A stretch of DNA of 64,000 nucleotides, from NCBI GenBank assembly GCA_963758635.1, contig CAVWWD010000007.1, positions 32,001-96,000 on the forward strand, in the 5' to 3' direction. This document shows positions 9,559 to 30,634 of this stretch, piece by piece. The DNA comes from an uncultured Candidatus Rokubacteria bacterium. Its GTDB lineage: Bacteria > Methylomirabilota > Methylomirabilia > Rokubacteriales > CSP1-6. The notes below the pieces were generated by a model. The model did no database searches. It saw only the letters and a list, made by a program, of their open reading frames with translations, and was not told the DNA's origin. Made by a program: the position numbers and the translations under genes. The number at the start of each line of letters is the position of its first letter. The first letter of the stretch is position 1.

Positions 9559-11256
9559 GAGCGCGTCTTGCCGGGACCCCACAACGCGCGGCCGGGCCTG
9601 GCGCCGGTGTGCTCGCCGTCCCGGAGGACCTGCACGCCGTTGACGAAGACGTGCCGCATGCCGACCGCGTACCGGTGCGGGTGCTCGTAGGTGGCGCGGT
9701 CGGCGATGGTCGCGGGGTCGAACGCCACCACGTCGGCAAACATGCCCTCGGCGAGCCGCCCGCGGCCATCCAGGCCGAGGTTGGCGGCGGGCAGGGCGGA
9801 GAGCCGGCGGACGGCCTCGGGCAGCGTGACGATCTTCTCGTCGCGCACGTAGGTGCCGAGGAGGCGGGCGAAGTTCCCGTAGGCGCGGGGATGGGTCGAG
9901 GAGGCGAGGAAGACGCCCTCGGGCGCCATCGACGCGCCGTCGGACCCGAAGGACACCCACGGCAGCCGGAGGACCTTTCGCAGGCCTTCCTCGTTCATCG
10001 AGAAGAAGACGGCGCCGATCCGGGAGCGGTCCTCGAGCACGAGGTCGTAGCGTCGTGTCGACCTCGTCCTTCCCGCGCGCCCGCGCGACCTCCTCGAGGG
10101 TCTTGCCGATGAGGCCCCGCAACGCCTCGGTGCGGAAGCTGACGAAGAGCGTGCGGGACATGGGCCCGCGCGCGCGCATCTCGGCGGCGATCCGCGTCCG
10201 CGTCGCCGGGTCCCGCAGCCGGTCGTAGAGGGCGCTGGCGCCTCCGCCGTGGGCCCACGCCGGGATGGTCGCGCTCAGGCCCGTCGAGCTCGCGGTGTAG
10301 AGGTACATGTTCGCGGTGATCCGGAGGCCCTCCCGGCGCGCGCGCTCGACGGCGGCGATGGCCGCGTCGAGCTTGTCCCAGTTCTTCTGCCCCACCACCT
10401 TGAAGTGGTAGATCTCCGCGGGCAGGCCCGCCTCGCGGCTGATGCGGATCAGCTCCTCCACGCCCTCGAGCAGCTTGTCGCTCTCGCTGCGCATGTGGGA
10501 GATGTACGTGCCCTTGTAGCGGGCGGCGACCTTGCAGAGCTCGATCAGCTCCTCGGTGGTCGCGTAGGTGCCGGGCGCGTAGATCAGCGCGGTCCCGATG
10601 CCGAGCGCGCCCGCCTCCATCTCCCGGCGGACCAGCGTCGCGCATCTCGTCCATCTGGGCGGGCGTCGGCGTCACGTCGTCGAGGCCGAGGACGTGGCTG
10701 CGGATGGTGGCGGCGCCGATGAACGACGCGACGTTCGGCGACACGCCGCGCCGTCTCCAGGTGCCGCAGGTACTCGGCGAGCGTGGTCCAGGGGACCTCG
10801 TACTTGATGTCGGTCTGGCTCGCGATCATGCGGCGCCGCATGGCGTCGTTGATCGGGCCCATCGACGTGCCCTCGCCGAAGATCTCGGTCGTGACGCCCT
10901 GTCGGATGTCGCTCTGCGAGCGCCCGTCCTCGAGCAGCGTGACCGGCGCCCACGAGAGCATGTTGACGAAGCCGGGCGCCACGGCGAGGCCGTCGCGCGT
11001 CGACGACGGCGCGCGCGCCGCCCTCGATGCGGCCGACGGCGACGATGCGATCGCCGCGGATCCCCACGTCGGCCCGCCGGCCCGGACCCCCGCTGCCGTC
11101 GTACACGGTGCCGTCCTTGATCAGGACGTTGAGGAGCCCGGGGGCACGCGGGGGCGACGGCTCGATCCCGGCCGAGGGCGGATGCGCGCACGCGGCGAGG
11201 ACGAGCGCCAGCGCGGCGGCGCCCCCGCGGATCCACGCCCCCGTTCGTGGCCGCAT
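9555..11256 (-). CDS. N-acyl-D-amino-acid deacylase (D-aminoacylase), lipoprotein-type signal; about 4 frameshifts
   Basis: Consecutive pieces in different frames: lipobox LAAC, IKDGTVYDGSG, APGFVNMLSW, QGVTTEIFGEG, YISHMRSE, GSDG, HPRAYGNFAR. Confidence 0.82.
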
Positions 11257-12128
11257 CAGATGCCGAGCCGCCGGCCGAACAGGCCCTGCGGGCGCCAGAG
11301 GAGGACCGCGATCATGATCAGGAACGCGAAGGCGTCCTTGTACGCGTAGGAGAGGTAGCTGCCGGCGAGCGCCTCGGTGAGGCCGATGAGGAAGCTGGCG
11401 GCGATCGCGCCGTTGACGTAGCCGAAGCCGCCCGCCACCACCGCGGCGAAGGCCTTCAGGGTGAGCGCGGTGCCCATGTCCGGGAAGATGTTGAAGAGCG
11501 GCGACACGAGGACGGCGGCGGCGGTGGCGAGCGCGGCGGAGACCGCGAAGGTGATCATGGCGATGCGCTGCACGTCGACGCCGACCACCGCGCAGGCCTC
11601 GCGGTTCTGCGACATCGCGCGCATGGCCCGGCCGGTGCGGGTGGTCCGGACGAAGCGCTGGAGGCCCCAGAAGATCGTGAGGCTCGCGGCCAGGACGAGG
11701 AGCCGCTGCCAGGCGAGGCGGAGGCCGCCCACGTCGAGCACGGCGGCGGAGAGCCGCGTCGGCACCTCCTTGGGCTGGGTGCCGAACACGATGATGGCGA
11801 GGTTGGTGAGCACGATCGAGGTCGCGAGCGTGGCGATGAGCTGCACGTGCCACGAGCGCGGCAGCACGACGCGGATGACGGTGCGCTGGTAGGCGATGCC
11901 GAACACCACCATGACGGCGGGGGCGAGCAGGCCGGCCACCGCGTAGGGGAGCGAGAGCTCGCGGTACGCGAACCAGAAGGCGTACGCGCCCAGCATGAAG
12001 AACTCGCCGTGGGCGAAGTTGATGAGCCGCGCGACGCCGAGCATGAGCGCGAGCCCCGCCGCCACCATCGCGTACATCGACCCCAGCGTGAGGCCGTGCA
12101 CCACCTGCTCGACGACGTCCAGGATCAT
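11256..12128 (-). CDS. Branched-chain amino acid ABC permease (LivH-like)
   Basis: GLTLGSMYAMVAAGL, INFAHGEFFMLGAY, GRAMRAMSQN, RPQGLFG. Confidence 0.92.
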   Translation of the reverse strand: MILDVVEQVVHGLTLGSMYAMVAAGLALMLGVARLINFAHGEFFMLGAYAFWFAYRELSLPYAVAGLLAPAVMVVFGIAYQRTVIRVVLPRSWHVQLIATLATSIVLTNLAIIVFGTQPKEVPTRLSAAVLDVGGLRLAWQRLLVLAASLTIFWGLQRFVRTTRTGRAMRAMSQNREACAVVGVDVQRIAMITFAVSAALATAAAVLVSPLFNIFPDMGTALTLKAFAAVVAGGFGYVNGAIAASFLIGLTEALAGSYLSYAYKDAFAFLIMIAVLLWRPQGLFGRRLGI

Positions 12129-12279
12129 CGGCGCGCGTGTCCGCTCTTCGACGCTCGCGGAGCCGCTGGTCGCCGGGCCCCGGGGCACACGTCGCCCCGG
12201 CACCCCCGTGGCGCGGTGAGGGCCGACAGAGAGCGGGCGGGGCGAGCGCGCCCCCCCATCCCCTGTACGCTTGAGCAGG

Positions 12280-12445
12280 TCATCGGCCATCTCGGCGAGA
12301 GTGCCACCCCCATCCGGTGCCGGCACGCATGCGAGCACCACTCAGGGACTGCGCCTCGCCCGGGATGTCGTGGTGGACGTCCCGTGGGGAGTCGCGCTTT
12401 GAGCGCCAGTACAGGGGTGATCGCATACCACGACACGGCCGAGGG
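12280..12445 (+). ncRNA. IS110 bridge RNA (target-binding and donor-binding loops); ends approximate
   Basis: Two hairpins with internal loops whose strands match the target flanks and the IS ends (detailed in findings). Confidence 0.8.
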
Positions 12446-12470
12446 CGAATTGCGGGGAGAAAGGGGTGCG

Positions 12471-13706
12471 ATGCCGGACTACGAACTGTATGTCGGTGTG
12501 GATTGGGCGACGCAAACGCATCAGGTCTGCCACGTGAGCCCGACCGGACAGCGGCGGCGGGAGTACGCGGTGGCCCACTCCGGGGCTGGCCTGGCCGCGT
12601 TGGTGACGGCGTTGACCGAGGAGCACGTGGACCCGGCGCACATCGCGGTCGCCTTGGAGGTGCCCCGTGGCGCGATCGTGGACGCGCTGCTTGCCGCTGG
12701 GTGTCACGTCTACGCGGTCAATCCCAAACAGCTCGATCGCTTCCGCGATCGCCATAGCGTGGCCGGGGCCAAGGACGATCGGCGTGACGCCTTCGTCCTG
12801 GGCGATGCCGTGCGCACGGATCGGGCCGCCTTCCGGCGGGTCACGGCGGAGGATCCGCGGCTGCTCCAGTTGCGCGAGGTGTCGCGGCTGCACGCCGAGT
12901 TGGTCCAGGAGCGGCTGCAGCTCGGCAATCGCCTGCGTGAGCAGGTGCACCGCTACTTCCCCGCGCTGCTGGGCCTGTGCCCGGCGGCCGATGAACCGTG
13001 GCTGTGGAGCCTGCTCGAGACCTGGCCGACGCCCGCGCACGCGGCGCGCGCGGGCCGGCCGGCCCTGCGCCGGCTGCTGGCCCGCCATCGGATCCGCCGG
13101 CTGACGGCGGACGCCGTGCACAGCGCGTTGCAGGCGCCGCCGCTGCCGGTGGCGCCGGGGACCGTGGAAGCGGTCGTCGAGCATCTGGCGCTGCTGCTGC
13201 CCCGCCTCCGCTTGGCCCAGGCCCAGGAGCGGCACTGCGAGCAGCGGCTGGAGCAGTTGCTGGACGCGCTGACGGTGGCCGACCCCGCGCGGCCCGAGCG
13301 GCCAGAGCATCGTGACGTGACTATCCTCCGCTCCTTGCCCGGGGTCGGGAGAGTCGTCGCCGCCACGATGCTCGCCGAGGCGTGGACGCCGTTGGCGACC
13401 CGAGATTACCAGACGTTGCGCGCTCAGGCCGGCGTCGCGCCGGTCACCCGTCAGAGTGGGAAGAGTCGCGTGGTCACGCTCCGCCGAGGCTGCAACCACC
13501 GGCTGCGCAATGCGATGTTCCACTGGGCGCGCAACAGCATCCGGGACGATCCGCGCGCCCGGGCGCACTACGATCGCCTGCGTCTGCGTCATGGCCATGC
13601 GCGGGCGCTCCGCGGCGTCGCGGATCGTTTGCTCGGGGTGCTCATCGCCATGCTCACGAGCGGCACGCTCTACGATGCGACGCGCCGACAGAAAATTGCC
13701 GCTTGA
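12471..13706 (+). CDS. IS110 family transposase/recombinase
   Basis: RuvC-like DEDD motifs GVDWA, ALEVP, KDDRRDA; SLPGVG; TRQSGK with the conserved Ser. Confidence 0.95.
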   Translation: MPDYELYVGVDWATQTHQVCHVSPTGQRRREYAVAHSGAGLAALVTALTEEHVDPAHIAVALEVPRGAIVDALLAAGCHVYAVNPKQLDRFRDRHSVAGAKDDRRDAFVLGDAVRTDRAAFRRVTAEDPRLLQLREVSRLHAELVQERLQLGNRLREQVHRYFPALLGLCPAADEPWLWSLLETWPTPAHAARAGRPALRRLLARHRIRRLTADAVHSALQAPPLPVAPGTVEAVVEHLALLLPRLRLAQAQERHCEQRLEQLLDALTVADPARPERPEHRDVTILRSLPGVGRVVAATMLAEAWTPLATRDYQTLRAQAGVAPVTRQSGKSRVVTLRRGCNHRLRNAMFHWARNSIRDDPRARAHYDRLRLRHGHARALRGVADRLLGVLIAMLTSGTLYDATRRQKIAA

Positions 13707-19049: not shown

Positions 19050-19517
19050 CTATCCTTTCCAGATCTTGATGCCTAGGCGATCGGCCGCGCGTCGAAGCCG
19101 GTCGTCTGCGGTGGCCAGGCGCGCTGACCCCCTGATGGCGAGCATCAGGTAGAGGCAGTCATAGACTGGATGGTCGAGGTCTGCGGCAAGACGCGCCGCG
19201 GGTCGAAGTAGCGGCGTTGATGGGGTCCAGGCAATGCCGAGCGCGAGCAGGTGGGTGATGGCGCGCTCGACGTTGGACAGATCCATCTCGCCGCGTCGCT
19301 GTCGCTTCCACCACGCGTTGGTAACTTCCACGGCCATCAGGTCGGGCGCAAGCAATGGTATCTCGCTGGTCAGGAGCTCCTCTGAGTGCCACGGATCGCG
19401 CTCGTTCGCGAACCAGTGGAACGCGATCGAGGCGTCGACCACCACGGGCGCGACGGACGCGTCGTAGGTCGCGTGCCGTTCGCGAGCGTGCCGGCGTACC
19501 ACCCGGGGTGACCTCAT
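19050..19517 (-). CDS. PIN-domain (VapC/FitB-like) toxin
   Basis: VVVDASIAFHW, APDLMAVEVTNA, VYDCLYLMLA, LATAD. Confidence 0.88.
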   Translation of the reverse strand: MRSPRVVRRHARERHATYDASVAPVVVDASIAFHWFANERDPWHSEELLTSEIPLLAPDLMAVEVTNAWWKRQRRGEMDLSNVERAITHLLALGIAWTPSTPLLRPAARLAADLDHPVYDCLYLMLAIRGSARLATADDRLRRAADRLGIKIWKG

Positions 19518-19817: not shown

Positions 19818-22600
19818 ATGCCCATTCCGCTCGGCGCGCCGTTCCGTCCCGGTCTCGATCCGCTCCCCGACACGCAGCACGCGTGGGCCGTCGTGAAGGA
19901 CCAGTGGGGGCGGCCCGCGCACGCCGATCCGCGCGACGGGCTCCGGCAGATCGAGATACCGGTGCCCGAGATCGGCCCCAACGAGGCGCTCGGCTACGTG
20001 CTGCACGCCGGCCTCACGTACAACACGATCTTCGCCGCGCGCGGCGTGCCCATCTCCGTGTTCGACCTGCACGACCGCGACCTGCACGTGCCGGGCAGCG
20101 GGGCGGTGGTGCTGCTCGCCGCGATCGGGCGCGAGGTGGCGCGCGAGGGCCGGCTGCGCGTGGGCGAGCTCTACGTGCTCTACCCGGGCGTGTCGAACCT
20201 GCTCTCGCCGCGGGCCGGCGAGGATCCGATGCACGCCGACTTCAAGATCCAGGGTTACGAGACGCCCGACGGCTCCTTCTGCCAGTTCGTGCGGGGCCAG
20301 GCGCCGCAGCTCCTGGCGCACTCACGGCGGCTGACCCTCGCCGAGGGCTCGTCGTACATGCTCGACCTGGAGACGGTGTACAAGGCGCTCTACGACGTGG
20401 CGCAGCTCGAGACCGACGAGCGCGTGTTCGTGGAGGGCGCGGCGGGGGGCACCGGGATCTACGCGGTGGCGTGCGCCGCCCTCCGCGGCGCCCACGTGAC
20501 GGGCCTCGTCTCGACCGAGGAGAAGGGGCGGCTGGTCCTCTCGCGCGGCGGCCACACGTACGTCAACCGCAAGGCCGCGGACATGACGGGCGTGTTCACC
20601 CCGGTGCCGGCCGGCTCCGCTTCGCGCGCGGCGTGGAGCGCGGCGGGCGCCGCCTTCAAGGCCATGGTGCGTGAGCGGAACCAGGGGGCGCTCATGAACG
20701 TGGTGGTGTCCTCGGTCGGCCGCGACCTCTTCGGCCGCATGGTCGATCTGCTCGTGCCGGGCGGGCGCCTGGTGTTCTACGGCGCCACCACCGGCTACAC
20801 CCTGGCCTTCCTCGGCAAGCCCGGCGCCGCGCCGGCGCGGGAGATGCTGCGTCGCGCGCGTCTCAGGCCCAACGAGGGCGTGCTCGTCCACTACGGGCTC
20901 GGCGACGGGCTCGAGGACGAGGCGGGCGCCGAGGCGATCGAGGCCGCGCTGCGGGCGGGCGCGCGGGTCGTGGTGGCCGCGCGGCTGGACGCCCAGGCGA
21001 CGCACGTGCAGTCCACGCACCGCGTGCACGGCGTGGTGAGCCTCGAGACGCTCGACCGGGCCGGCGGCTTTCGCTGGCCCGAGGCCATGCCCGACTACGA
21101 CACCGATCGCGCGGGCTACCGCGAGTACCAGGACCTCACGCTCAAGCCGTTCGGCCAGGCGGTGGGCCGGCTCCTCGCCACGGCCGACAACCCCCGCGGC
21201 AACCCCGACGTGGTCGTCGAGCGGGCGGGCCGGGACACGCTCGGCGTCAGCACGTTCCTGGCGCGGCCGTTCACCGGCCGCGTGGTCTACGTCGAGGTGA
21301 CGCGCGACCGGCGCTTCTCGTTCTACGCGCCCAACGTGTGGATGCACGAGAAGCGCGTCCTGTTCCCGACGTTCTCGATCCTCGGCTCCCACCTGTCCAA
21401 CGCCCATCAGGCCGAGGAGGTCGTGCGGCTGATCGACGCGGGCGCGCTCGCCATCCATCCGCCCGTCGTGCGCGGCTGGGACGACCTCGCGGAGCAGCAT
21501 CAGCTCATGCACGAGAACCGCCACGCCGGCACCACCACCATCCGCGTGGGGGCCGGCCCCGCCCTCGACGGCGCGCGCACGCGCGCGCGAAGTCTACGAG
21601 GCGTGGGGCTCGCGCTTCGCCGACGGCCGCGACCGTCCGCCTGCGGCTGGATCCGGTGGCGCCGGGGCGGGAGGAGCGGGTCGCGCTCGTCACGATCGAC
21701 TCGCCTCCGGCCAACGCCATCGGCCTCACGGTGCTCGAAGAGCTCGAGCGGGTGGTCGAGACCCTGGAGAGCGACACGACGGTGCGCGCGGCGGTGCTCA
21801 CCGGCGGCGGCACGATGTTCGTGGCCGGCGCCGACATCCGCCAGCTGCGCGCCTTCGCGACGCCGGACGACGTCGAGGCCTTCACCAGCTCGCGTGCAGC
21901 GTCTCTTCACGCGCGTCGGTCGACTGCGGGCGCCCGTGATCGCCGCCGTGGACGGCTATGCGCTGGGCGGCGGCAACGAGCTCCAGATGGCCTGCGCGTA
22001 TCGCGTGGCAGGGGAGCGCGCGGAGCTTGGTCAGCCCGAGATCAACCTTCACGTGCTGCCCGGCTTCGGCGGCACCCAGATGCTGCCCCGGCTCGTGCTG
22101 CGCAGGAATGTGCGGTGAGCGGTCGGGCGGGCGAGACGGGCTGGTCGAGGCGCTCGCGATGCTCCTGGACGGGCGGCGTCGCACGGCATCGGCCGCGCTC
22201 GCCCTCGGGCTGGTCGACGAGGTGGCCCCGGCCGATGCCCTGTCACACGCCTTGTCAATCGCGCGCCGTGTCGCGCTGGGAGAGTTTCAGGGTACCCTGT
22301 GGTCGCCGCTGGCGGCCGGCGCGGAGATGGACACCGGGGCCGGGCGGGAGGGGTGGGAGGCGGCTCAGACTTACCCGCGCATCGGACGGATCCTGCGCCC
22401 ACCATGGCACCATCGACCGGCTGGCTCCAGCCGGGGCCACGCTGGAGGCGGTCCGGACTGGCTTGTTCGAGGGGGTCGGGGCTGGCCTCGCCCGGGAGGC
22501 TCGCCTCTTCGGCGCGATGGTGGCCTCCGCGGAGGGTAGGGAGGGGATCGACCGCTTCCTGTCCCGCCAGTCCTGGGCGCTACCCCTCCGCGAGGGCTGA
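19818..22600 (+). CDS. Enoyl-CoA reductase (MDR, Pcs/Ccr-like) fused to an enoyl-CoA hydratase; about 5 frameshifts in the 3' third
   Basis: [33 protein letters not shown]; then [36 protein letters not shown]. Confidence 0.78.
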
Positions 22601-22676
22601 CGGTCGTCGTCGGGGATCTTTACGATTCCTGGCCGGGAGCCGGGCTGATCAAGGGTAAGTAGTTGAAAAAGCGTCC

Positions 22677-22692
22677 TGGCATGCGTCGTGCT
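22677..22692 (+). promoter_or_regulatory. sigma54 (-24/-12) promoter with an upstream IHF-like site
   Basis: TGGCATGCGTCGTGCT (GG-N10-GC); TAAGTAGTTGAAA at about 22656-22668. Confidence 0.55.
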
Positions 22693-22785
22693 CTAGTGGG
22701 AAATGCCGCTGCACGAGGCCAGTATTCGTGTGATACTCACTAGCGGTCTATATCTCCGTGGTTTCGGTCTAGGCAAGGAGCCTGT

Positions 22786-23013
22786 ATGAGCGAGAACCGG
22801 CCTGACGAAGTTCAGTCGCCTCTGGAGCACAGCGATCCGATCGAGCAGGCCCCGGAGCAGCTCCAGCGGGAGATGAATCGACGCAAGCTGCTGAAGGTGG
22901 CCCTTGCGGCGCCGCCCGTGATGTGGACTCTTCGCGCGCGGCCCGCGTCGGCCGATCACGCCCTGGGCACTCCAAGCGGAGCACTTTCGGGGAACCTGTC
23001 GAACCATCCGTAG
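22786..23013 (+). CDS. Small peptide, candidate precursor of the HprK-related kinase cassette
   Basis: SD AAGGAG; RRKLLK...AAPPVMWTLRARPASA, then a Ser/Gly-rich tail DHALGTPSGALSGNLSNHP. Confidence 0.6.
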   Translation: MSENRPDEVQSPLEHSDPIEQAPEQLQREMNRRKLLKVALAAPPVMWTLRARPASADHALGTPSGALSGNLSNHP

Positions 23014-23049
23014 GCTCTGGAGGGCCCCGCGTCTCACGCCTCCCGCTGA

Positions 23050-23346
23050 ATGGACACCCCTCCGAGCGCCGTATGGCAGGTCTCGGAGGGGTGTCAGTTC
23101 GTCTGGCAACTGTGGGATGATGAATACGTCGTGTTCGACCACGGCTCCGGCAGCACGCACTTCCTCGATCTGATCGCAGGCGAGGCCCTTCAGACCCTCG
23201 TCCAGTCCCCTTCGGACGTTCCCGGGCTCACCTACCGTATGGCGTCACGGATGGGTATCGAGTCCGACTCCGCCCTCGAGCAACGCATCCGAGACACGCT
23301 GGACCGCTTTCGCGAGGCCGGGCTGGTCGAGCCGTCTCTGACGTGA
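23050..23346 (+). CDS. PqqD-family peptide chaperone/RRE (HPr-rel-A system type)
   Basis: WDDEYVVFDHGSGSTHFLDLIA...LDRFREAGLVE. Confidence 0.85.
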   Translation: MDTPPSAVWQVSEGCQFVWQLWDDEYVVFDHGSGSTHFLDLIAGEALQTLVQSPSDVPGLTYRMASRMGIESDSALEQRIRDTLDRFREAGLVEPSLT

Positions 23347-24279
23347 CGGCCGGCGAGATCTCCGCCGCCGAGTTCACCGAGCGGCTGGCGCACCCCGGGA
23401 TCACCCTCGACACCGGGGCCTTCTCGATCCAGCTTCAGGCCTCCGCCATCGATGGGCTCGGCCAGGATCTCCACTTCCTGTACGCCGACTGCCCGATCGT
23501 CCCCGATGGCGAGATCGTGGATTTCCGTGTTGCCCTCCGGCGGCCGTCGGGCCTTCGCCGGTGGTGGCGGCCCCAGGTCCGGATCCTCTTCGACGGGGCG
23601 AGCCTGGTCGAGCCGATGCCGCTGGCCGTGGCGCTCCCGGCGCTCGAGTGGGGCCTGAACTGGGCCATCGCCGCCCATGCCCACCACCACGTGATGATCC
23701 ACGCCGCCGTGCTCGAGCGGGACGGCCGCGCGGTGGTGCTGCCCGGCACTCCGGGGGCGGGCAAGAGCACGCTCTGCGCCGGGGCTCGCCCACCGGGGCT
23801 GGCGGCTCCTCTCCGACGAGTTCGCGCTGCTGCGCCCGGCCGACGGTCTTCTCGTGCCCTGGCCCCGGCCGATCAGCCTCAAGAACGTCTCGATCGACGT
23901 CATCAGGGCGTTCGCCCCCGACGCCCGCCTGGGGCGGAGCGTCCCCGACACCTCCAAGGGCACCGTCGCGCTTCTCCGGCCGCCGCCCGAGAGCCGCCGG
24001 CGCATGCGGGAGACCGCCGAGCCGGCGTGGCTCGTGTTCCCCGGCTATCGTGCGGGTGAGCCCGCCCGGCTCACCGCGTTGCCGCGCGCGCGCGCGTTCC
24101 ACCGTCTCGCGGAGATGTCGTTCAACTACGCCATGCTCGGCGCGCCTGGGTTCGAGACGTTGCGCCGCATGGTCGGCGCCTGCGACACCTTCGAGTTCAC
24201 CTACGGAGAGCTCAAGGAAGCGGTGGAGCTCTTCGGGGCGCTGGCGCCGCCGCGCTCGACGCGTGTCGAGGGAGCCTAG
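23343..24279 (+). CDS. HprK-related kinase A; one frameshift near 23785
   Basis: LEWGLNWAI, HAAVLERDG, PGTPGAGKSTLCA; then GWRLLSDEF, PRPISLKN, PDTSKGTV, SFNY. Confidence 0.85.
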
Positions 24280-25339
24280 CGCGCCGCTGCTCTTCCAGGC
24301 GCTCGGTGACCCCGGGCGTCTGCCCCGCCTGTCCGTCCCGGAGTGGGACCGTCTCCTCCGCGAGGCTCGCCGCGCCAATGCCCTGGCGCGCATCGAGGCC
24401 CTGGTCGCGGACCGCGGCGCGAGTGACCGCATCCCCGAGCGGGCGCGCCAGGCGCTCGAAGGGGCCCGCCTCGTCGTGGATCAGCAACACCGCCTCGTGC
24501 GCTGGGAGGTGACGCGGATCCGACGCGCGCTGGATGGGCTCGACGTGCGGCTCGTGCTGCTCAAGGGCGCGGCCTACGTCCACGCCGGCCTGCCGCCCGC
24601 CCGCGGCCGCACGTTCAACGATGTGGACGTCATGGTGCCGGAGGATCGGCTGCCCCTGGTGGAGGCCCGCCTCCGCGCCGCGGGCTGGACCACGCTGACC
24701 CTGGACCCGTACGACGACCGCTACTACCGCGCGTGGTCCCACGAGCTGCCGCCGATGCACCATCCGGCGCGGGGGATCGTGGTGGACGTGCACCACAACA
24801 TCCTGCCGCCGGTGGGCCGCGTGAACGCGGACGCGCGCCCGCTCCTGGAGGCGGCCGCGACGATCGCGCCCGGCCTCGCCGTGCTGGCGCCCGCGGACAT
24901 GGTGCTTCACACCGCGGTGCACCTGTTCCAGTCCGGCGAGCTCCATTCCGCGGTGCGGGATCTCACCGACCTGGACGCGCTGCTGCGCCACTTCGGCCGC
25001 GACCCGGGCTTCCCGGACGCCGTGGTGGCTCGCGGGCGCGCGCTCGGCCTGGGCCGGCCGCTCTACTACTCGCTGCGGCTCGCGCGGCGGCTCCTGGGCA
25101 CGCCCCTTCCGGCGGGGATCGAGGAGCGGGCGGGAGCGCCGTCGGCCCCGGTGCGCGCGGTCATGGACGGTCTGGTGGCGCGGGCCCTCGTGCCGCGGCT
25201 GCACGGCGAGACTCCGCGGGGCGCGGGACTGTCGCGGTGGCTCCTCTACACCCGATACCACTGGCAGCGCATGCCGGCGTGGATGCTGGCACGGCACCTC
25301 ATGCACAAGGCCATGCCGCGCCCGCGGCCGGTCAAGTGA
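24263..25339 (+). CDS. Nucleotidyltransferase family protein (NTP_transf_5-like)
   Basis: VLLKGAAY, GRTFNDVDVMVP, HELPPMHHP, VDVHHNI. Confidence 0.85.
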   Translation: MSREPSAPLLFQALGDPGRLPRLSVPEWDRLLREARRANALARIEALVADRGASDRIPERARQALEGARLVVDQQHRLVRWEVTRIRRALDGLDVRLVLLKGAAYVHAGLPPARGRTFNDVDVMVPEDRLPLVEARLRAAGWTTLTLDPYDDRYYRAWSHELPPMHHPARGIVVDVHHNILPPVGRVNADARPLLEAAATIAPGLAVLAPADMVLHTAVHLFQSGELHSAVRDLTDLDALLRHFGRDPGFPDAVVARGRALGLGRPLYYSLRLARRLLGTPLPAGIEERAGAPSAPVRAVMDGLVARALVPRLHGETPRGAGLSRWLLYTRYHWQRMPAWMLARHLMHKAMPRPRPVK

Positions 25340-25345
25340 CGTCGC

Positions 25346-26596
25346 TCACGCCAGTGACGGTCGGCCCGGCTGGCGTGGCAGCAGCCACGTGAGCAGCCCC
25401 AGCAAGAGCAGGAACGGCGTCACGCGATAGACGGTGGCGATGCTGGTGAGGTCGGCCAGCCAGCCCAGCCCCGCCGCGCCGAGACCGCCGAGCCCGAACG
25501 AGAGCCCATAGAACACGCCGGCGGCGAGACCGACGCGGCCGGGCAGGAGCTCCTGCGCGTACACCAGGATGGCGGAGAACGCCGAGGCCATGATCATGGC
25601 GATGAGCACCGCGAGCACGCCCGTCCAGAACAGGTTCGCGTGGGGAAGGATGAGCGCGAAGGGGAGCGGGCCCAGGATGGAGAACCACATGACGGGAATG
25701 CGACCGACGCGGTCGCCGACGGCCCCGCCGGCAATGGTGCCCGCCACGATCCCCACGAGGAACGCGAACAGGTAGAGCTGCGCCGTCTGCACGGACAGGT
25801 GGAACTTGTCGATCAGGTAGAGGGTGAAGTATGAGCCCAGGCTGGCGCTGTACACGTTCTTGGAGAAGAGCAGCGCGATGAGGATGGCCATGGCCATGAC
25901 CACCTTGCCGCGGGGCAGGTCGCCGTCGCGCGGAGCGCGGCGTGCCGCCCGGCTCGAGGGGGCGGGGGCCGGATGGCGCGCGTACCAGCCGCCGACCTGC
26001 ACCAGGACCACGGCGGCCACGAGGGCGGCGGCGGCGAACCAGCCGATGGTCGACTGGCCGTGCGGCACCACCACGAAGGCGGCGAGCAGCGGGCCGGATG
26101 CGGAGCCGATGTTGCCGCCGGCCTGGAACAGCGACTGGGCGAGGCCGTAGCGCCCCCCCGCCGCCATGCGGGCCACGCGCGAGGCCTCGGGATGGAACAC
26201 CGCCGAACCTACGCCGAGCAGCGCCGCGGCGACGAGGATCGCGGGATACGACGAGGCGCCGGCCATGAGGAGCAGGCCCGCGAGCGTGAAGCCGACGCCC
26301 GCGGTGAGGGAATACGGCTGCGGGTGGCGGTCGGTGTAGATACCGACCACGGGCTGGAGCATGGAGGCCGTGCAGTGCACGGTGAGGCTGATCAGCCCGA
26401 TCTGCGTGAAGCTGAGGTCGTAGGACGCCTTGAGGATGGGATACAGCGCGGGCACGAGCGACTGCATCATGTCGTTCAGCAGGTGGCAGAAGCTCAGCGA
26501 CAGGATGACGGAGAAGGTCGTGACCTGGACGCCGGCGCGGGCCGCGCCGGCGCCGGTGTGGGTCGCGGAAGGGGACGCCAGCGTCCCGTTGCTCAT
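25346..26596 (-). CDS. MFS transporter (Fsr/fosmidomycin-resistance-like)
   Basis: CHLLNDMMQSL, LQPVVGIYTD, VFHPEASRVARMAAGGRYGLAQSLFQ. Confidence 0.88.
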   Translation of the reverse strand: MSNGTLASPSATHTGAGAARAGVQVTTFSVILSLSFCHLLNDMMQSLVPALYPILKASYDLSFTQIGLISLTVHCTASMLQPVVGIYTDRHPQPYSLTAGVGFTLAGLLLMAGASSYPAILVAAALLGVGSAVFHPEASRVARMAAGGRYGLAQSLFQAGGNIGSASGPLLAAFVVVPHGQSTIGWFAAAALVAAVVLVQVGGWYARHPAPAPSSRAARRAPRDGDLPRGKVVMAMAILIALLFSKNVYSASLGSYFTLYLIDKFHLSVQTAQLYLFAFLVGIVAGTIAGGAVGDRVGRIPVMWFSILGPLPFALILPHANLFWTGVLAVLIAMIMASAFSAILVYAQELLPGRVGLAAGVFYGLSFGLGGLGAAGLGWLADLTSIATVYRVTPFLLLLGLLTWLLPRQPGRPSLA

Positions 26597-27510
26597 CGGA
26601 GGGCCTCTCGCGAGAGGTCGAGCGCGCGCTCGGCCAGGGTGACCAGCATGCGCCACGCGGCTTCGTGGTTCTTCGTGGCCTCGGCGTCGTCGGTGTAGGT
26701 GTCGAGCAGCACGTAGCGGGCGCCCAGGCCTTCCAGGTCGGCCAGGTCGCGCCGGACCTGGTCGAGCGTGCCCTCGCCGGCGATCCGCTGATCGTCGGGC
26801 ATCGGCGACTCGGTGAGCCGCAGGCGGATGCGCGGGCACAGCGCGGGAACGGGTCGGGCCTCGCGCTCGGCCATGGCGGAGAGGCGCGGCAGCCCCTCGT
26901 CGCGCAGCCAGCCGATGCGGATCCGGATGGGATGCCAGGCGTCGCCGTGGCGCACCGCGCGGCGGAGCGCGGCATCGCTCGCGCCGCCGACCCACACGGG
27001 CGGATGCGGCGATCGGAGCGGCCGCGGCCCGCCCCGTACGTCCTTGAACGCGACGAAGTGCCCGTCGTGCGAGGCCACGTCCTGCGTCCACAGGGTCTTG
27101 ATGGCGTCGAGGTAGTCGTCGGTGATGGCGCCGCGCCGCTCGAACGGCACGCCGAGCGCGGCGAACTCCTGGCGGGCCCAGCCCACGCCCACGCCGAAGA
27201 TGAAGCGCCCGCCCGACAGGCGGTCCACGTTCGCCGCCATCCGGGCGGTCTCGACCGGATGCCGGTACGGCAGCACGATGACGGTGGTGCCGATCTCCAC
27301 GCGCCTGGTGATGCCGGCCAGCCAGCCCAGCGTGGTGAACGGGTCGTAGACGGGCGCGGGGTAGCGGGCGTGCACGTCCGGCGTGACGGCCACGTGGTCC
27401 GAGATCATCAGGAAGTGGTAGCCGAGCGTCTCGGACAGCGCGGCCCAGCGGGCGAGCGCCTCAGGACTCACGCCGGGCCCGAAGTTGAGCAGGTTGACAC
27501 CGATCTTCAT
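26593..27510 (-). CDS. LLM-class (probably F420-dependent) oxidoreductase
   Basis: ISDHV, DPFTTLGWLAG, LPYRHP, DRLSGGRFIFGVGVGWARQEF. Confidence 0.88.
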   Translation of the reverse strand: MKIGVNLLNFGPGVSPEALARWAALSETLGYHFLMISDHVAVTPDVHARYPAPVYDPFTTLGWLAGITRRVEIGTTVIVLPYRHPVETARMAANVDRLSGGRFIFGVGVGWARQEFAALGVPFERRGAITDDYLDAIKTLWTQDVASHDGHFVAFKDVRGGPRPLRSPHPPVWVGGASDAALRRAVRHGDAWHPIRIRIGWLRDEGLPRLSAMAEREARPVPALCPRIRLRLTESPMPDDQRIAGEGTLDQVRRDLADLEGLGARYVLLDTYTDDAEATKNHEAAWRMLVTLAERALDLSREALR

Positions 27511-28010: not shown

Positions 28011-28457
28011 TCACGACCGTTCGACGGGCTCGACGACCACCAGACCAGGCAGATGACCGGCGATCCGGTGGAACTCGTCGCTGTTCCCCGTGACGACAGC
28101 GGCCCCAATTCGCCAGGCCGTGAGAGCAATGAGCAGATCGTTCAGTGGACCCAGGCGGTCGTGGATCGCGAGACGCGTCGAGTACAGCTCCCGGAAGAGA
28201 GCGCCGGCGCGCTCGAACAGAGCGGCCGTCGGGGGCACGACGCGCTCCGCGGGAAAGGCGGCCTTGAGGCGGTCCACGGCACGTCGGCGTCGAAGGGTAT
28301 CCGCGCCGACGCGGAGCTCCATCAGGACCACGGCCGAGAGGAACCGGATTCTCGATTCGCGGCCACCCCACACCCACGCCTCGTGACGACCCGAGCGCAG
28401 GTAGTCGATGAACACGTTGGTGTCGAGAAGGATCCGCCCTGTCACGAGTAGGGCCAC
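28011..28457 (-). CDS. PIN-domain (VapC) toxin
   Basis: ILLDTNVFIDY, VVLMEL, NDLLIALTA, VVTGN. Confidence 0.88.
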   Translation of the reverse strand: MALLVTGRILLDTNVFIDYLRSGRHEAWVWGGRESRIRFLSAVVLMELRVGADTLRRRRAVDRLKAAFPAERVVPPTAALFERAGALFRELYSTRLAIHDRLGPLNDLLIALTAWRIGAAVVTGNSDEFHRIAGHLPGLVVVEPVERS

Positions 28458-28648
28458 GGGCGATCGTCTCCGCGGAGCGCCGCCCGAAGCCCCTTGAGTC
28501 GGCGAACGATGCGCGTCTCCTGCATGAGGAGTCCCAGGGCTCGATCGATCGCGTCCTGCTCCGAGGTGACGCCGAAATATCGCTTGGCAAAGTCGATCTT
28601 CTGCTGATCGAGCTTCAAGTGCTTGTGCCGCCTCATGGGCGCACCCAT
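28442..28648 (-). CDS. VapB-like antitoxin
   Basis: KHLKLDQQKIDFAKRYFGVTSEQDAIDRAL; SD AGGAG; directly upstream of the PIN gene. Confidence 0.78.
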   Translation of the reverse strand: MGAPMRRHKHLKLDQQKIDFAKRYFGVTSEQDAIDRALGLLMQETRIVRRLKGLRAALRGDDRPWPYS

Positions 28649-28661
28649 GGCACGTCTCCTC

Positions 28662-28686
28662 TCCATGTACACGGCGTGTACATGGA
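28662..28686. promoter_or_regulatory. Perfect 11-bp inverted repeat, probable TA operator
   Basis: TCCATGTACAC-ggc-GTGTACATGGA. Confidence 0.6.
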
Positions 28687-28960: not shown

Positions 28961-28976
28961 TGGCACTGACATTGCA
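28961..28976 (+). promoter_or_regulatory. sigma54 promoter of the DUF748 gene
   Basis: Consensus TGGCAC-N5-TTGCA. Confidence 0.7.
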
Positions 28977-29003: not shown

Positions 29004-30634
29004 ATGGCCATCCCGCACGGACTCATCGGACGCACCGGGCCACGGTGGACGCCGCCCCACATCGGCCGACGCACGAGCTGGCTCCTCGCGAGCCTCGTCG
29101 CCCTGATCGCGCTGATCGTGATCGGCGCGTTCTTCGTGGACGAGCCGCTCCGCCGCTACGTGGAGCGACGGATGAACGAGAGCCTCGACGGCTACACCGT
29201 CAGCATCCGCCGGCTGAGCTTCCATCCCATCGGCGCGTCGCTGACGCTCTACGACGTTGTGTTCGTCCAGAGCGCGCATCCGGACCCGCCCGTGATATTC
29301 ATCCCGCGGCTCGACGCGAGCACGCAGTGGCGCGAGGTGATCCGGCTCAGGGCGGTCGCCAACTTCCGCCTGCAATGGCCGGAGCTGTGGTTGAACTTCA
29401 AGCAGCTGCGCGAGGAGGTCAAGAAGGACACGTCGGTGTCCGACCGCGGGTGGCAGGAGGCGTTCCAGGCGATCTTCCCGCTCAAGATCAACAAGTTCAC
29501 GATCGTCGACGGGAAGGTGACCTACATCGACGAGGGTCCGTTCGCGCCGCTCACGCTCTACAGCGTGAACATCGACGCCGACAACATCCGCAACGTGCAG
29601 TCGGCGGAGCGCACGTATCCCTCGGAGCTTCACGCCGAGGCGCTCGTGTTCGACAAGGGTAAGCTGGTGATCGACGGCAACGCGGACTTCCTGGCCGCGC
29701 CACACCCGAGCGTGAAGGCGCAGGTGAAGCTCGACGACATCGCGCTGAGCTACTTCGAGCCGGTGGCGCGGCGCTACGACGCCGTGCTCAAGGGCGGGCG
29801 CCTGTCGCTGGAGGGCGCCGTGGAGTATGCGCCGACGTTCCGCCAGGTGGATCTCGCCCTGGTCAGGATCGACAACGTGCGGCTCGACTGGGTGCACAAG
29901 CGCGCCGACAAGAGCCCGACGGCCACGGCCGGCACGATGGTCCAGAAGACCACCGAGCAGGTGGCCGACCGGCCCGACATGGTGCTCCGCCTGCGCGAGC
30001 TGCGGATCACGCGCAGCGACCTCGGAGTGATCGACCGGGGCGCGAGCCCCGAGTACCGCGTGTTCCTGACCGGCACCGACGCCAGCATCACGAACCTGGG
30101 CAACCAGCCGGCCGAGGGCCGCTCGGAGGTGAAGATCCGCGGCAAGTTCATGGGGAGCGGCGACGCGTCGTGACGGGATCGTTCCTGGCGAACCCGAAGG
30201 GCCCCGACTTCGACGTGGACATCCGGATCGAGAACACCGACATGACGAGGATGAACGACCTGCTGCGCGCGCACGGGGGCTTCAACGTCGTGTCGGGCAC
30301 CTTCAACTTCTACTCGGAGATCAAGGTCAAGGACGGGCGCATCGCCGGCTACGTGAAGCCGCTGTTCAAGGACCTGGTGGCCTACAACCCGTCCCAGGAC
30401 CGCGAGAAGGGGTTCGTGCAGAAGCTCAAGGAGCGGGTGGTCAACGTGGTCGGCAAGGTGATGAAGAACGTGCCGCGCAAGGAGGTGGCCACCAAGGTCG
30501 ACATCTCCGGGCCGCTGGAGAACCCGGAATACAGCACGCTCCAGGTGATCCTCCGCATCGTCCAGAACGCCTTCTTCAAGGCCATCCTGCCCGGATTCGA
30601 GAGCGCGCCGCGGACGGCGCCGGCGAAAACCTAG
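29004..30634 (+). CDS. DUF748 (AsmA-like) domain protein; one frameshift near 30170
   Basis: N-terminal membrane anchor, beta-rich repeats; C-terminal GYVKPLFKD...ATKVDISG...NAFFKAILPG. Confidence 0.75.

Follow-up and report, generated by a model that had tools for sequence, protein, structure and literature searches.

The window analysed here is a 64,000-nucleotide stretch from the genome of an uncultured Candidatus Rokubacteria bacterium of the phylum Methylomirabilota (contig CAVWWD010000007.1 of assembly GCA_963758635.1). Its positions 22656-25339 hold a plus-strand operon of four genes, which encode a 75-residue peptide, a PqqD-family peptide chaperone, an HprK-related kinase and a PF14907 nucleotidyltransferase, the enzyme genes overlapping one another. 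A preliminary description, made from the letters alone, had presented this locus as a cyclase-less cassette for a peptide made on the ribosome and modified after translation (RiPP), in which the PqqD-family protein is the RiPP recognition element (RRE). All the elements that it described were found in place, and they are given below with the features added by the present analysis (all on the plus strand).

22656-22670, +: IHF-like A/T-rich site upstream of the promoter element
22677-22692, +: sigma-54-type -24/-12 element TGGCAT-N5-GTGCT, 109 nt 5' of the ATG of the peptide gene
22775-22780, +: Shine-Dalgarno sequence AAGGAG of the peptide gene
22786-23013, +: precursor peptide gene (75 aa and stop), encoding MSENRPDEVQSPLEHSDPIEQAPEQLQREMNRRKLLKVALAAPPVMWTLRARPASADHALGTPSGALSGNLSNHP
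22879-22953, +: leader core R32-A56, with twin arginine, K37, P44, T48-L49, basic c-region R50/R52 and A54-S55-A56
22954-23010, +: predicted core or mature peptide D57-P75, with Ser64, Ser68 and Ser72 in an SGxLSGNLS motif
23050-23346, +: HPr-rel-A PqqD-family peptide chaperone (RRE), 98 aa; TIGR04353 at 65.3 bits against a cut-off of 35
23343-24279, +: HprK-related kinase A, with a GTG start and a 4-nt overlap with the PqqD gene; in two frames in the assembly, Walker-A GTPGAGKST kept
23779-23784, +: one-base surplus in a C/G run, which breaks the kinase frame in the window
24263-25339, +: PF14907 (NTP_transf_5) nucleotidyltransferase, 358 aa, with a GTG start and a 17-nt overlap with the kinase gene; 176.5 bits against 31.2

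The three proteins that follow the peptide are the HPr-rel-A trio, as had been proposed, and this is confirmed by profile matches to TIGR04353, TIGR04352 and PF14907. The PqqD protein is a member of the NCBIfam HPr-rel-A system by score and also matches PF05402 (E 1.4e-4). The two halves of the kinase together span positions 2-279 of the TIGR04352 profile, and each stays under the cut-off of 200 bits because of the frame break (161.8 bits for profile positions 2-127; 154.3 bits for 152-279 or 198.6 bits for 114-279), while an intact orthologue in the related locus L003 reaches 367 bits with the same model and has a weak match to HPr(Ser) kinase (E 2.2e-4). In the nucleotidyltransferase, K101-G102, D120-x-D122 and D175-x-H177-H178 are invariant in all eight aligned orthologues, so that the G and D-x-D residues of the Pol-beta type are kept. 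The NCBIfam system, which comprises TIGR04352 and TIGR04353, has no model for a substrate, and its names were found in no paper of the literature searched.

The peptide gene and the kinase frame

Seven further homologues of the peptide, with 71-75 residues and 67-93% identity, were found in a library of 5.8 billion proteins. Residues 30-56 and the tail SGALSG[NT]LS are almost invariant among these close homologues, whereas the N-region, which is acidic, and the linker that follows Ala56 differ both in sequence and in length. In all eight other cassettes of the phylum, a small open reading frame (ORF) that matches the peptide profile lies directly 5' of the PqqD gene (E 8e-20 to 1e-5). A leader profile seeded from 20 loci was then tested on 40 orthologous loci and matched directly upstream of PqqD in 35 of them, 15 of which lie outside the profile seed; the five misses are L042 and L046, whose divergent precursors can be made out by eye, L058 and L059, which are truncated at contig ends, and the locus L025. 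Within its own genome the window peptide is the only ORF that matches this profile (E 1e-15, the next one following at E 0.19). The preliminary description had made its case depend on the peptide being kept beside homologous cassettes and, with a counterpart upstream of PqqD in eight of eight loci of the phylum and 35 of 40 overall, it is therefore kept.

A word-indexed search with the precursor profile gave 25 matches at E<=1e-3, all of them unnamed or annotated as “hypothetical”, and no NCBIfam or Pfam model matches the window peptide or its relatives of about 200 residues. Among 7997 candidates, no longer protein that fuses PqqD to a precursor appeared at E<=1e-3, a negative of little weight. 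Judging from its conserved sequence and position, the product of this upstream gene is likely the substrate of the enzymes.

Two members of one genus, L030 (862-1080) and L031 (2586-2813), encode peptides with tails wholly unlike those of their genus relatives after the A-F-A site. Both come from assemblies of few contigs, probably of long reads, and the divergent tails may be further indel errors rather than true variants.

The frame break of the kinase was examined in contigs of four public runs; the runs with the region are labelled as soil, bog and rhizosphere metagenomes. One run (X1) does not span the kinase site, and all three bridging short-read contigs, from the DNA runs X2 and X4 and the RNA library X12 (three studies; 98-99% identity), have one base fewer at 23779-23784. 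The source assembly itself (12 contigs, 87% complete) contains many other genes that are split likewise, including a neighbouring hydratase fusion, a DUF748 gene and several sigma-54 activators elsewhere in the genome. We therefore take the break for a probable error of the assembly, or at the very most a difference between strains, and regard the cassette as functional; the kinase, which was earlier thought to need repair before expression, has an intact frame in every contig that bridges the site. The RNA-library contigs cover all four genes, which is only a hint of expression as carry-over of DNA is possible. The contigs X4 and X12 also have an extra G after 23018, and X4 has one base fewer at 25344; both differences are intergenic, just 3' of the stop codons of the peptide and nucleotidyltransferase genes, respectively.

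The same evidence bears on the idea that the window cassette is a decaying remnant of no present function, its substrate gene being truncated and its kinase frameshifted. The kinase is indeed out of frame in the assembly, and the peptide has about one third of the usual precursor length. However, the frameshift is missing from every bridging contig of the other runs while similar splits are many in this assembly, precursors are short in all nine cassettes of the phylum (the window counted) with the serine motif present in six (L004, L030 and L031 differ), and leader and core are kept among the close homologues while the flanks drift. Decay of the locus thus appears highly improbable to us.

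Leader, core and chaperone

Signal peptides of the twin-arginine translocation (Tat) system have a well-known layout, in which RR-x-[LF]-[LI]-K is followed by an uncharged stretch of 12-14 residues, a basic residue in the c-region that is read as a “Sec-avoidance” feature, and A/V-x-A/G at positions -3/-1. The window leader has an S/T-R-R-x-F-L-K motif, an uncharged h-region and an A-x-A c-region. In alignment columns over the 35 precursors, the spacing of RR, K, P-x-[VI]-x-[TS]-[LV], basic c-region and A/V-x-A/G end is fixed, and the single elements are kept as follows.

Twin arginine: 34-35 of 35 precursors
Lys or Arg four residues on: 32 of 35
Pro following six residues that are small or hydrophobic: 32 of 35
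Thr or Ser in the [VI]-x-[ML]-[TS]-[LV] stretch: 34 of 35
Basic residue in the c-region: 26 of 35
Ala or Val at -3: 32 of 35
Ala or Gly at -1: 35 of 35

Pfam TAT_signal (PF10518) was the commonest weak match among 20 members scanned (eight of them, best E 0.002, all sub-threshold), and the genome encodes TatC (192.7 bits against a cut-off of 132.7). The leader thus looks like a twin-arginine signal with a signal-peptidase-I site. As for the Tat-like character claimed for the window peptide in the preliminary description, the agreement with the layout holds throughout the family, but the window peptide itself matches neither PF10518 nor TIGR01409.

This missing match leaves room for a leader that serves only as a handle for the RRE, with the same enzymes acting on the same substrate, which would then leave the cell by another exit or not at all and would be trimmed by an unlinked protease. 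Compared with ordinary signal peptides, the leader is much stricter in its spacing, as is expected of a recognition sequence, and a convergent MFS transporter gene lies immediately downstream of the cassette. On the other hand, the features combine into the textbook Tat layout, including a basic c-region in 26 of 35 precursors and suitable -3/-1 residues in 32-35, the leader of the long family members is followed by several cysteines and a folded domain, as in secreted proteins, and the MFS gene is not kept in three loci of a related genus (L070-L072). Moreover, a related pathway, that of the linear polyphosphorylated peptides (LPPs) of Bacillota, uses a homologue of signal peptidase I as its leader peptidase (Popov et al., Nat Commun 2026, PMC13381572). 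Overall we regard a mere handle as rather unlikely.

The solved structures nearest to the PqqD family profile are the RREs of lasso peptide systems, TbiB1 (E 0.0012) and TfuB1 (E 0.0049). A complex prediction from PqqD (19-row alignment) and peptide (15 rows) gave scores of 0.19 and 0.18 against a mark of 0.32. Separately, two loci with distant HprK-like paralogues from the same taxonomic order (L016 923-1183 and L008 887-1222) have small ORFs that combine RR or KR with Y-x-x-P-x-V-L-T-L, which is nearer to the YxxPxL leader motif of lasso peptides and LPPs than is the leader of the window.

Downstream of the leader, 23 of the 35 precursors, that of the window included, contain the core motif [LMIFA]S[GHADC]N[LMIPTVA]S, and the SGxLSGNLS motif aligns between the short peptides and gammaproteobacterial proteins of about 200 residues. 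Precursor length exceeds 100 residues in 25 of 35, and the ten at or below 100 residues comprise the nine of the window's phylum and one gammaproteobacterial member. The gammaproteobacterial partners are mostly about 200 residues long and consist of the leader, C-x-x-SG-x-[LM]-SGNLS, a second cysteine, PG[YF]W and a domain of about 120 residues. Compared with these, the window peptide represents by its sequence a minimal form made of leader and motif. Its assignment to a RiPP class thus stands in part: a conserved small peptide does exist in the phylum, but elsewhere the partner is mostly a predicted secreted protein of about 200 residues, and the system is therefore as much a protein-modification pathway as a RiPP pathway.

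In an AlphaFold model of one long precursor (L044, 2736-3380, minus strand) residues 1-74 are disordered and residues 75-190 form a confident helical domain. Pfam has no family for this C-terminal domain, in which PG[YF]W and H-A-V-A-A-L-L-N stretches are conserved, and the fold searches gave no clear relative among solved structures, the best Foldseek match in the pdb set being at E 5.2 and the best VIA wide match at Z 4.7, to designed helical proteins. A second type of precursor (L051, L052, L053, L055, L061 and L063) has a leader ending in T-L-H-S-G-x-A-x-A, followed by an unrelated cysteine-containing sequence, and has no SGNLS.

Transcription and genomic surroundings

The sequence TAAGTAGTTGAAAAAGCGTCCTGGCATGCGTCGTGCT at 22656-22692 combines the IHF-like site with the -24/-12 element. 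The latter agrees in its GG and GC, 12 nt apart, with the sigma-54 consensus TGGCAC-N5-TTGCW, and the pattern TGGCAYNNNNNKTGCW occurs twice in the 64 kb against 0.17 expected, a count reached by none of 100 shuffles. Across the family, 22 of the 35 precursor genes have in the 250 nt upstream a GG-N10-GC element that keeps at least 5/7 of the other consensus positions, against 1.1 in shuffles, and with the stricter 6/7 positions eight genes were observed against 0.14 expected. No sigma-70-like site was found in 22400-25600. From these sequence patterns we take the promoter to be of the sigma-54 type, in agreement with the preliminary description. In an alignment of eight upstream regions of the same phylum, the columns TAA-T-(4)-GAA of the IHF-like site are invariant in all eight and so is GAGC of the Shine-Dalgarno sequence; the former, matched by eye to the consensus, is a putative binding site for IHF. 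One genus of six genomes (L026-L031) has AGCACGGAACGTGCA at the promoter position, with no GG at -24, and this palindrome-like conserved sequence may be a degenerate sigma-54 site or the operator of another regulator. A near-perfect second sigma-54-type element, TGGCAC-N5-TTGCA, is located at 28961-28976 (+), about 30 nt 5' of the DUF748 gene.

Within the operon, a hairpin between the peptide and PqqD genes is no better than in shuffled sequences (z 0.29), and no intrinsic terminator was detected in 22400-25600. The genes on either side of the cassette are these.

19818-22600, +: reductase/enoyl-CoA hydratase fusion (zinc-ADH/crotonyl-CoA-reductase-like and ECH), the upstream neighbour
25346-27091, convergent: MFS transporter gene, immediately 3' of the cassette

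Luciferase-like and PIN-domain genes lie beyond the MFS gene. A scan of 31 ORFs (11247-38963) found no lasso cyclase (Asn-synthase-like macrolactam synthetase), no transglutaminase-like B2 peptidase, no radical SAM protein and no exosortase, which upholds the earlier statement that cyclase, peptidase and radical SAM genes are absent near the cassette. No peptidase family at all was found among these ORFs or in the three loci of the related genus, and an MsbA-like ABC exporter gene was likewise absent from both, the convergent MFS gene being the only transporter seen in the window. Unrelated housekeeping genes surround the cassette both in the window and in another genus of the phylum, and the module of four genes is therefore self-contained.

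Further along the window, an IS110-family transposase gene (11247-13706, +) and PIN-domain (VapC-like) genes at 19050-19517 (-) and 28011-28672 (-) were noted, the latter with a small upstream antitoxin-like ORF. The hydratase fusion is read in two overlapping frames, with ECH profile positions 76-146 in one and 2-63 in the other, likely by an indel error, and the DUF748 gene (29004-30631) is broken into two frames near 30170.

Few genomes of the window's phylum carry the kinase family: at E<=1e-40 it was found in 9 of 251, counting that of the window. In the proteobacterial class that holds a Competibacter match, the HPr-rel-A kinase is above cut-off in 31 of 401 sampled genomes, and PqqD lies 5' of the kinase in nearly all of the loci of those 31 genomes. 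In a Competibacter locus (L023) the nucleotidyltransferase gene is on the opposite strand.

Three of six annotated gammaproteobacterial neighbourhoods (L066, L068 and L069) place the cassette in XrtA/PEP-CTERM polysaccharide clusters. Those of L066 and L069 include PrsR (about 730 bits), PrsK (about 800 bits), PrsT and a TIGR03013 transferase, and in L068 an XrtA-system amidotransferase gene is directly upstream. A TIGR03013-family transferase gene also lies upstream of the cassette in L004, which belongs to the order of the window's host. In addition, L066 (6338-7120) and L069 (15228-16091) have a Trypsin_2 serine peptidase gene near the cassette with no NCBIfam match at E<=1e-20, and this peptidase could be a processing enzyme in these two loci.

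Such surroundings suggest another reading of the small protein, which would not be a substrate but a co-regulated secreted matrix factor with a Tat signal and with PqqD as no more than its chaperone, while the enzymes act on a sugar, a lipid carrier or a polysaccharide of the XrtA/PEP-CTERM matrix pathway. Besides the loci just named, this would agree with the lack of a serine motif in 12 of the 35 precursors and with the PF14907 enzymes, for which a peptide chemistry of their own is unproven; LppN of the LPP pathway was inactive in the single study on a cassette that has no cyclase (PMC13381572). Nevertheless, the four genes stand alone amid housekeeping genes in two genera, so that their function can do without polysaccharide genes in the vicinity. 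RREs of the PqqD family present peptides to enzymes (PMC13381572), and in the two relatives that have been studied the HprK-like kinase phosphorylates serines of a peptide (PMC13381572; PMC6993621). We hold a non-peptide target to be improbable.

A proposed variant of the polyphosphorylated peptide pathway

In Bacillota, a cyclase-less cassette of RRE, HprK-like kinase and NTP-transferase yields LPPs, as described for the Paenibacillus alginolyticus genes lppA-K-B-S-D-N (Popov et al., Nat Commun 2026, PMC13381572). In that study LppK puts up to four phosphates on core Ser3, and LppS, a SipW-like homologue of signal peptidase I, cuts the leader. The precursors have 35-200 residues with a conserved N-terminus, the clusters are often located within capsule or polysaccharide loci, and the authors term LPPs restricted to Bacillota (PMC13381572). 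Since the chemistry of such a cassette has thus been shown, the “uncharacterised class” of the preliminary description no longer fully holds.

We compared the two systems through gene content and the published description. Both have a cyclase-less cassette of a precursor, a stand-alone RRE, an HprK-like kinase and an uncharacterised NTP transferase; both have precursors of the same size range with a conserved N-terminus and a variable C-terminus, a P-x-V element in the leader, a predicted modified serine just past the leader cut, a predicted cut of the signal-peptidase-I type and frequent placement in polysaccharide loci. Unlike the LPP clusters, the window cassette contains neither a gene for a SipW-like peptidase (LppS, the search handle of the LPP family) nor one for an MsbA-like exporter (LppD). 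The LPP leader motif is YxxPxVLxHQxIxFETxxS, whereas the window leader is twin-arginine-like and has no Tyr, sharing only P-x-[VI] and T-L with it, and cassettes of the window type differ further in sigma-54-type transcription, Gram-negative hosts and the core motif SGxLSGNLS. With no dedicated peptidase, no exporter and no leader Tyr, the cassette is therefore filed by us as a variant that would work like the LPP pathway, and not as a member of the LPP family.

Lasso peptide systems provide the second comparison. The RRE is of the B1 kind found in them; as with PadeK of paeninodin and PsmK of pseudomycoidin, an HprK-like kinase would act on a precursor serine, where several phosphates are possible (PMC6993621). 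The nucleotidyltransferase, with its D-x-D motif, resembles PsmN, which in pseudomycoidin is needed for the addition of a hexose to the phosphoserine, D134 and D136 being essential (PMC6993621). In contrast to lasso clusters, no macrolactam synthetase and no B2 peptidase are encoded, so the product would be linear, and the conserved serines of the window peptide are internal whereas the modified serine of lasso peptides is C-terminal (PMC6993621).

Several observations weigh against placing the cassette beside these pathways with a peptide as its substrate. The inactivity of LppN is one, and the locus L025, where 14.9 kb contain no precursor candidate, is another. Because an SGNLS-type core is missing from 12 precursors, the modified residue is not universal. 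In the leader, the Tyr or Trp of LPP and lasso precursors is replaced by A, L or V, only P-x-[VI] and the following T-L being common, so that the binding mode of the RRE may differ. Lastly, the window cassette lies outside any polysaccharide locus, and to this are added the lack of a TAT_signal match of the window peptide and the one genus whose promoter has no -24 GG. With these points counted, our view, with somewhat better than even confidence, is that this is an HPr-rel-A cassette whose likely substrate is the product of the 75-residue upstream gene, and that it would work as a Gram-negative variant of the LPP pathway.

The pathway that we propose would start with the activation of sigma-54 transcription by an enhancer-binding protein. 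The candidate for this role is PrsR, because an orthologue of it (592.5 bits, with the cut-off at 502.6) adjoins the exosortase gene of the genome on another contig. The cytoplasmic PqqD protein would then bind the leader around P44-x-V, in the way lasso and LPP RREs bind [Y/W]xxPx[LVI], the kinase would transfer a phosphate, or several of them, to one of the tail serines (Ser64, Ser68 or Ser72), and the nucleotidyltransferase would extend the phosphate with a hexose, as PsmN does, or with a nucleotide. The modified peptide would be exported by the Tat system and cut after Ala56 by signal peptidase I, which would free a phospho(glyco)peptide of 19 residues. By this route the cell's general machinery for export would stand in for the SipW-like peptidase and the ABC exporter that are dedicated to the LPP pathway.

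A bolder extension, which we put forward only tentatively, is that the leader would be both a Tat signal and the handle of the RRE, PqqD proofreading the precursor, and that the product would be part of a sigma-54/PrsR matrix programme; this would be the first RiPP-like pathway to borrow Tat and signal peptidase I. The Tat proofreading chaperones TorD and DmsD are cytoplasmic proteins that hold a twin-arginine leader until maturation is finished. The PqqD protein would act on its leader in a similar manner, with an unrelated fold and with covalent modification, rather than cofactor insertion, as the maturation that is awaited. None of the literature searched joins twin-arginine leaders with RREs, or PrsK/PrsR with the HPr-rel-A trio.

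The HPr-rel-A trio is common, yet no substrate or product of it is described in the literature searched. The window offers a minimal conserved candidate substrate of 75 residues in a self-contained four-gene operon, and with three enzymes and three candidate serines this is the easiest biochemical entry point to the family. The system is of interest mainly for its Tat-type leader, the proposed use of the general export machinery and the link to sigma-54 and PEP-CTERM. Should the cassette work as proposed, the LPP chemistry reported in 2026 would not be confined to Bacillota, and phospho-modification of peptides and proteins would be tied to sigma-54-controlled exopolysaccharide and floc programmes. 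If the Tat reading is true, RiPP-type maturation would reach the general secretion machinery. With a dual-role leader, the widespread HPr-rel-A cassette would gain its long-missing substrate, and its product would be a phospho(glyco)peptide here and the decorated N-terminus of proteins of about 200 residues elsewhere.

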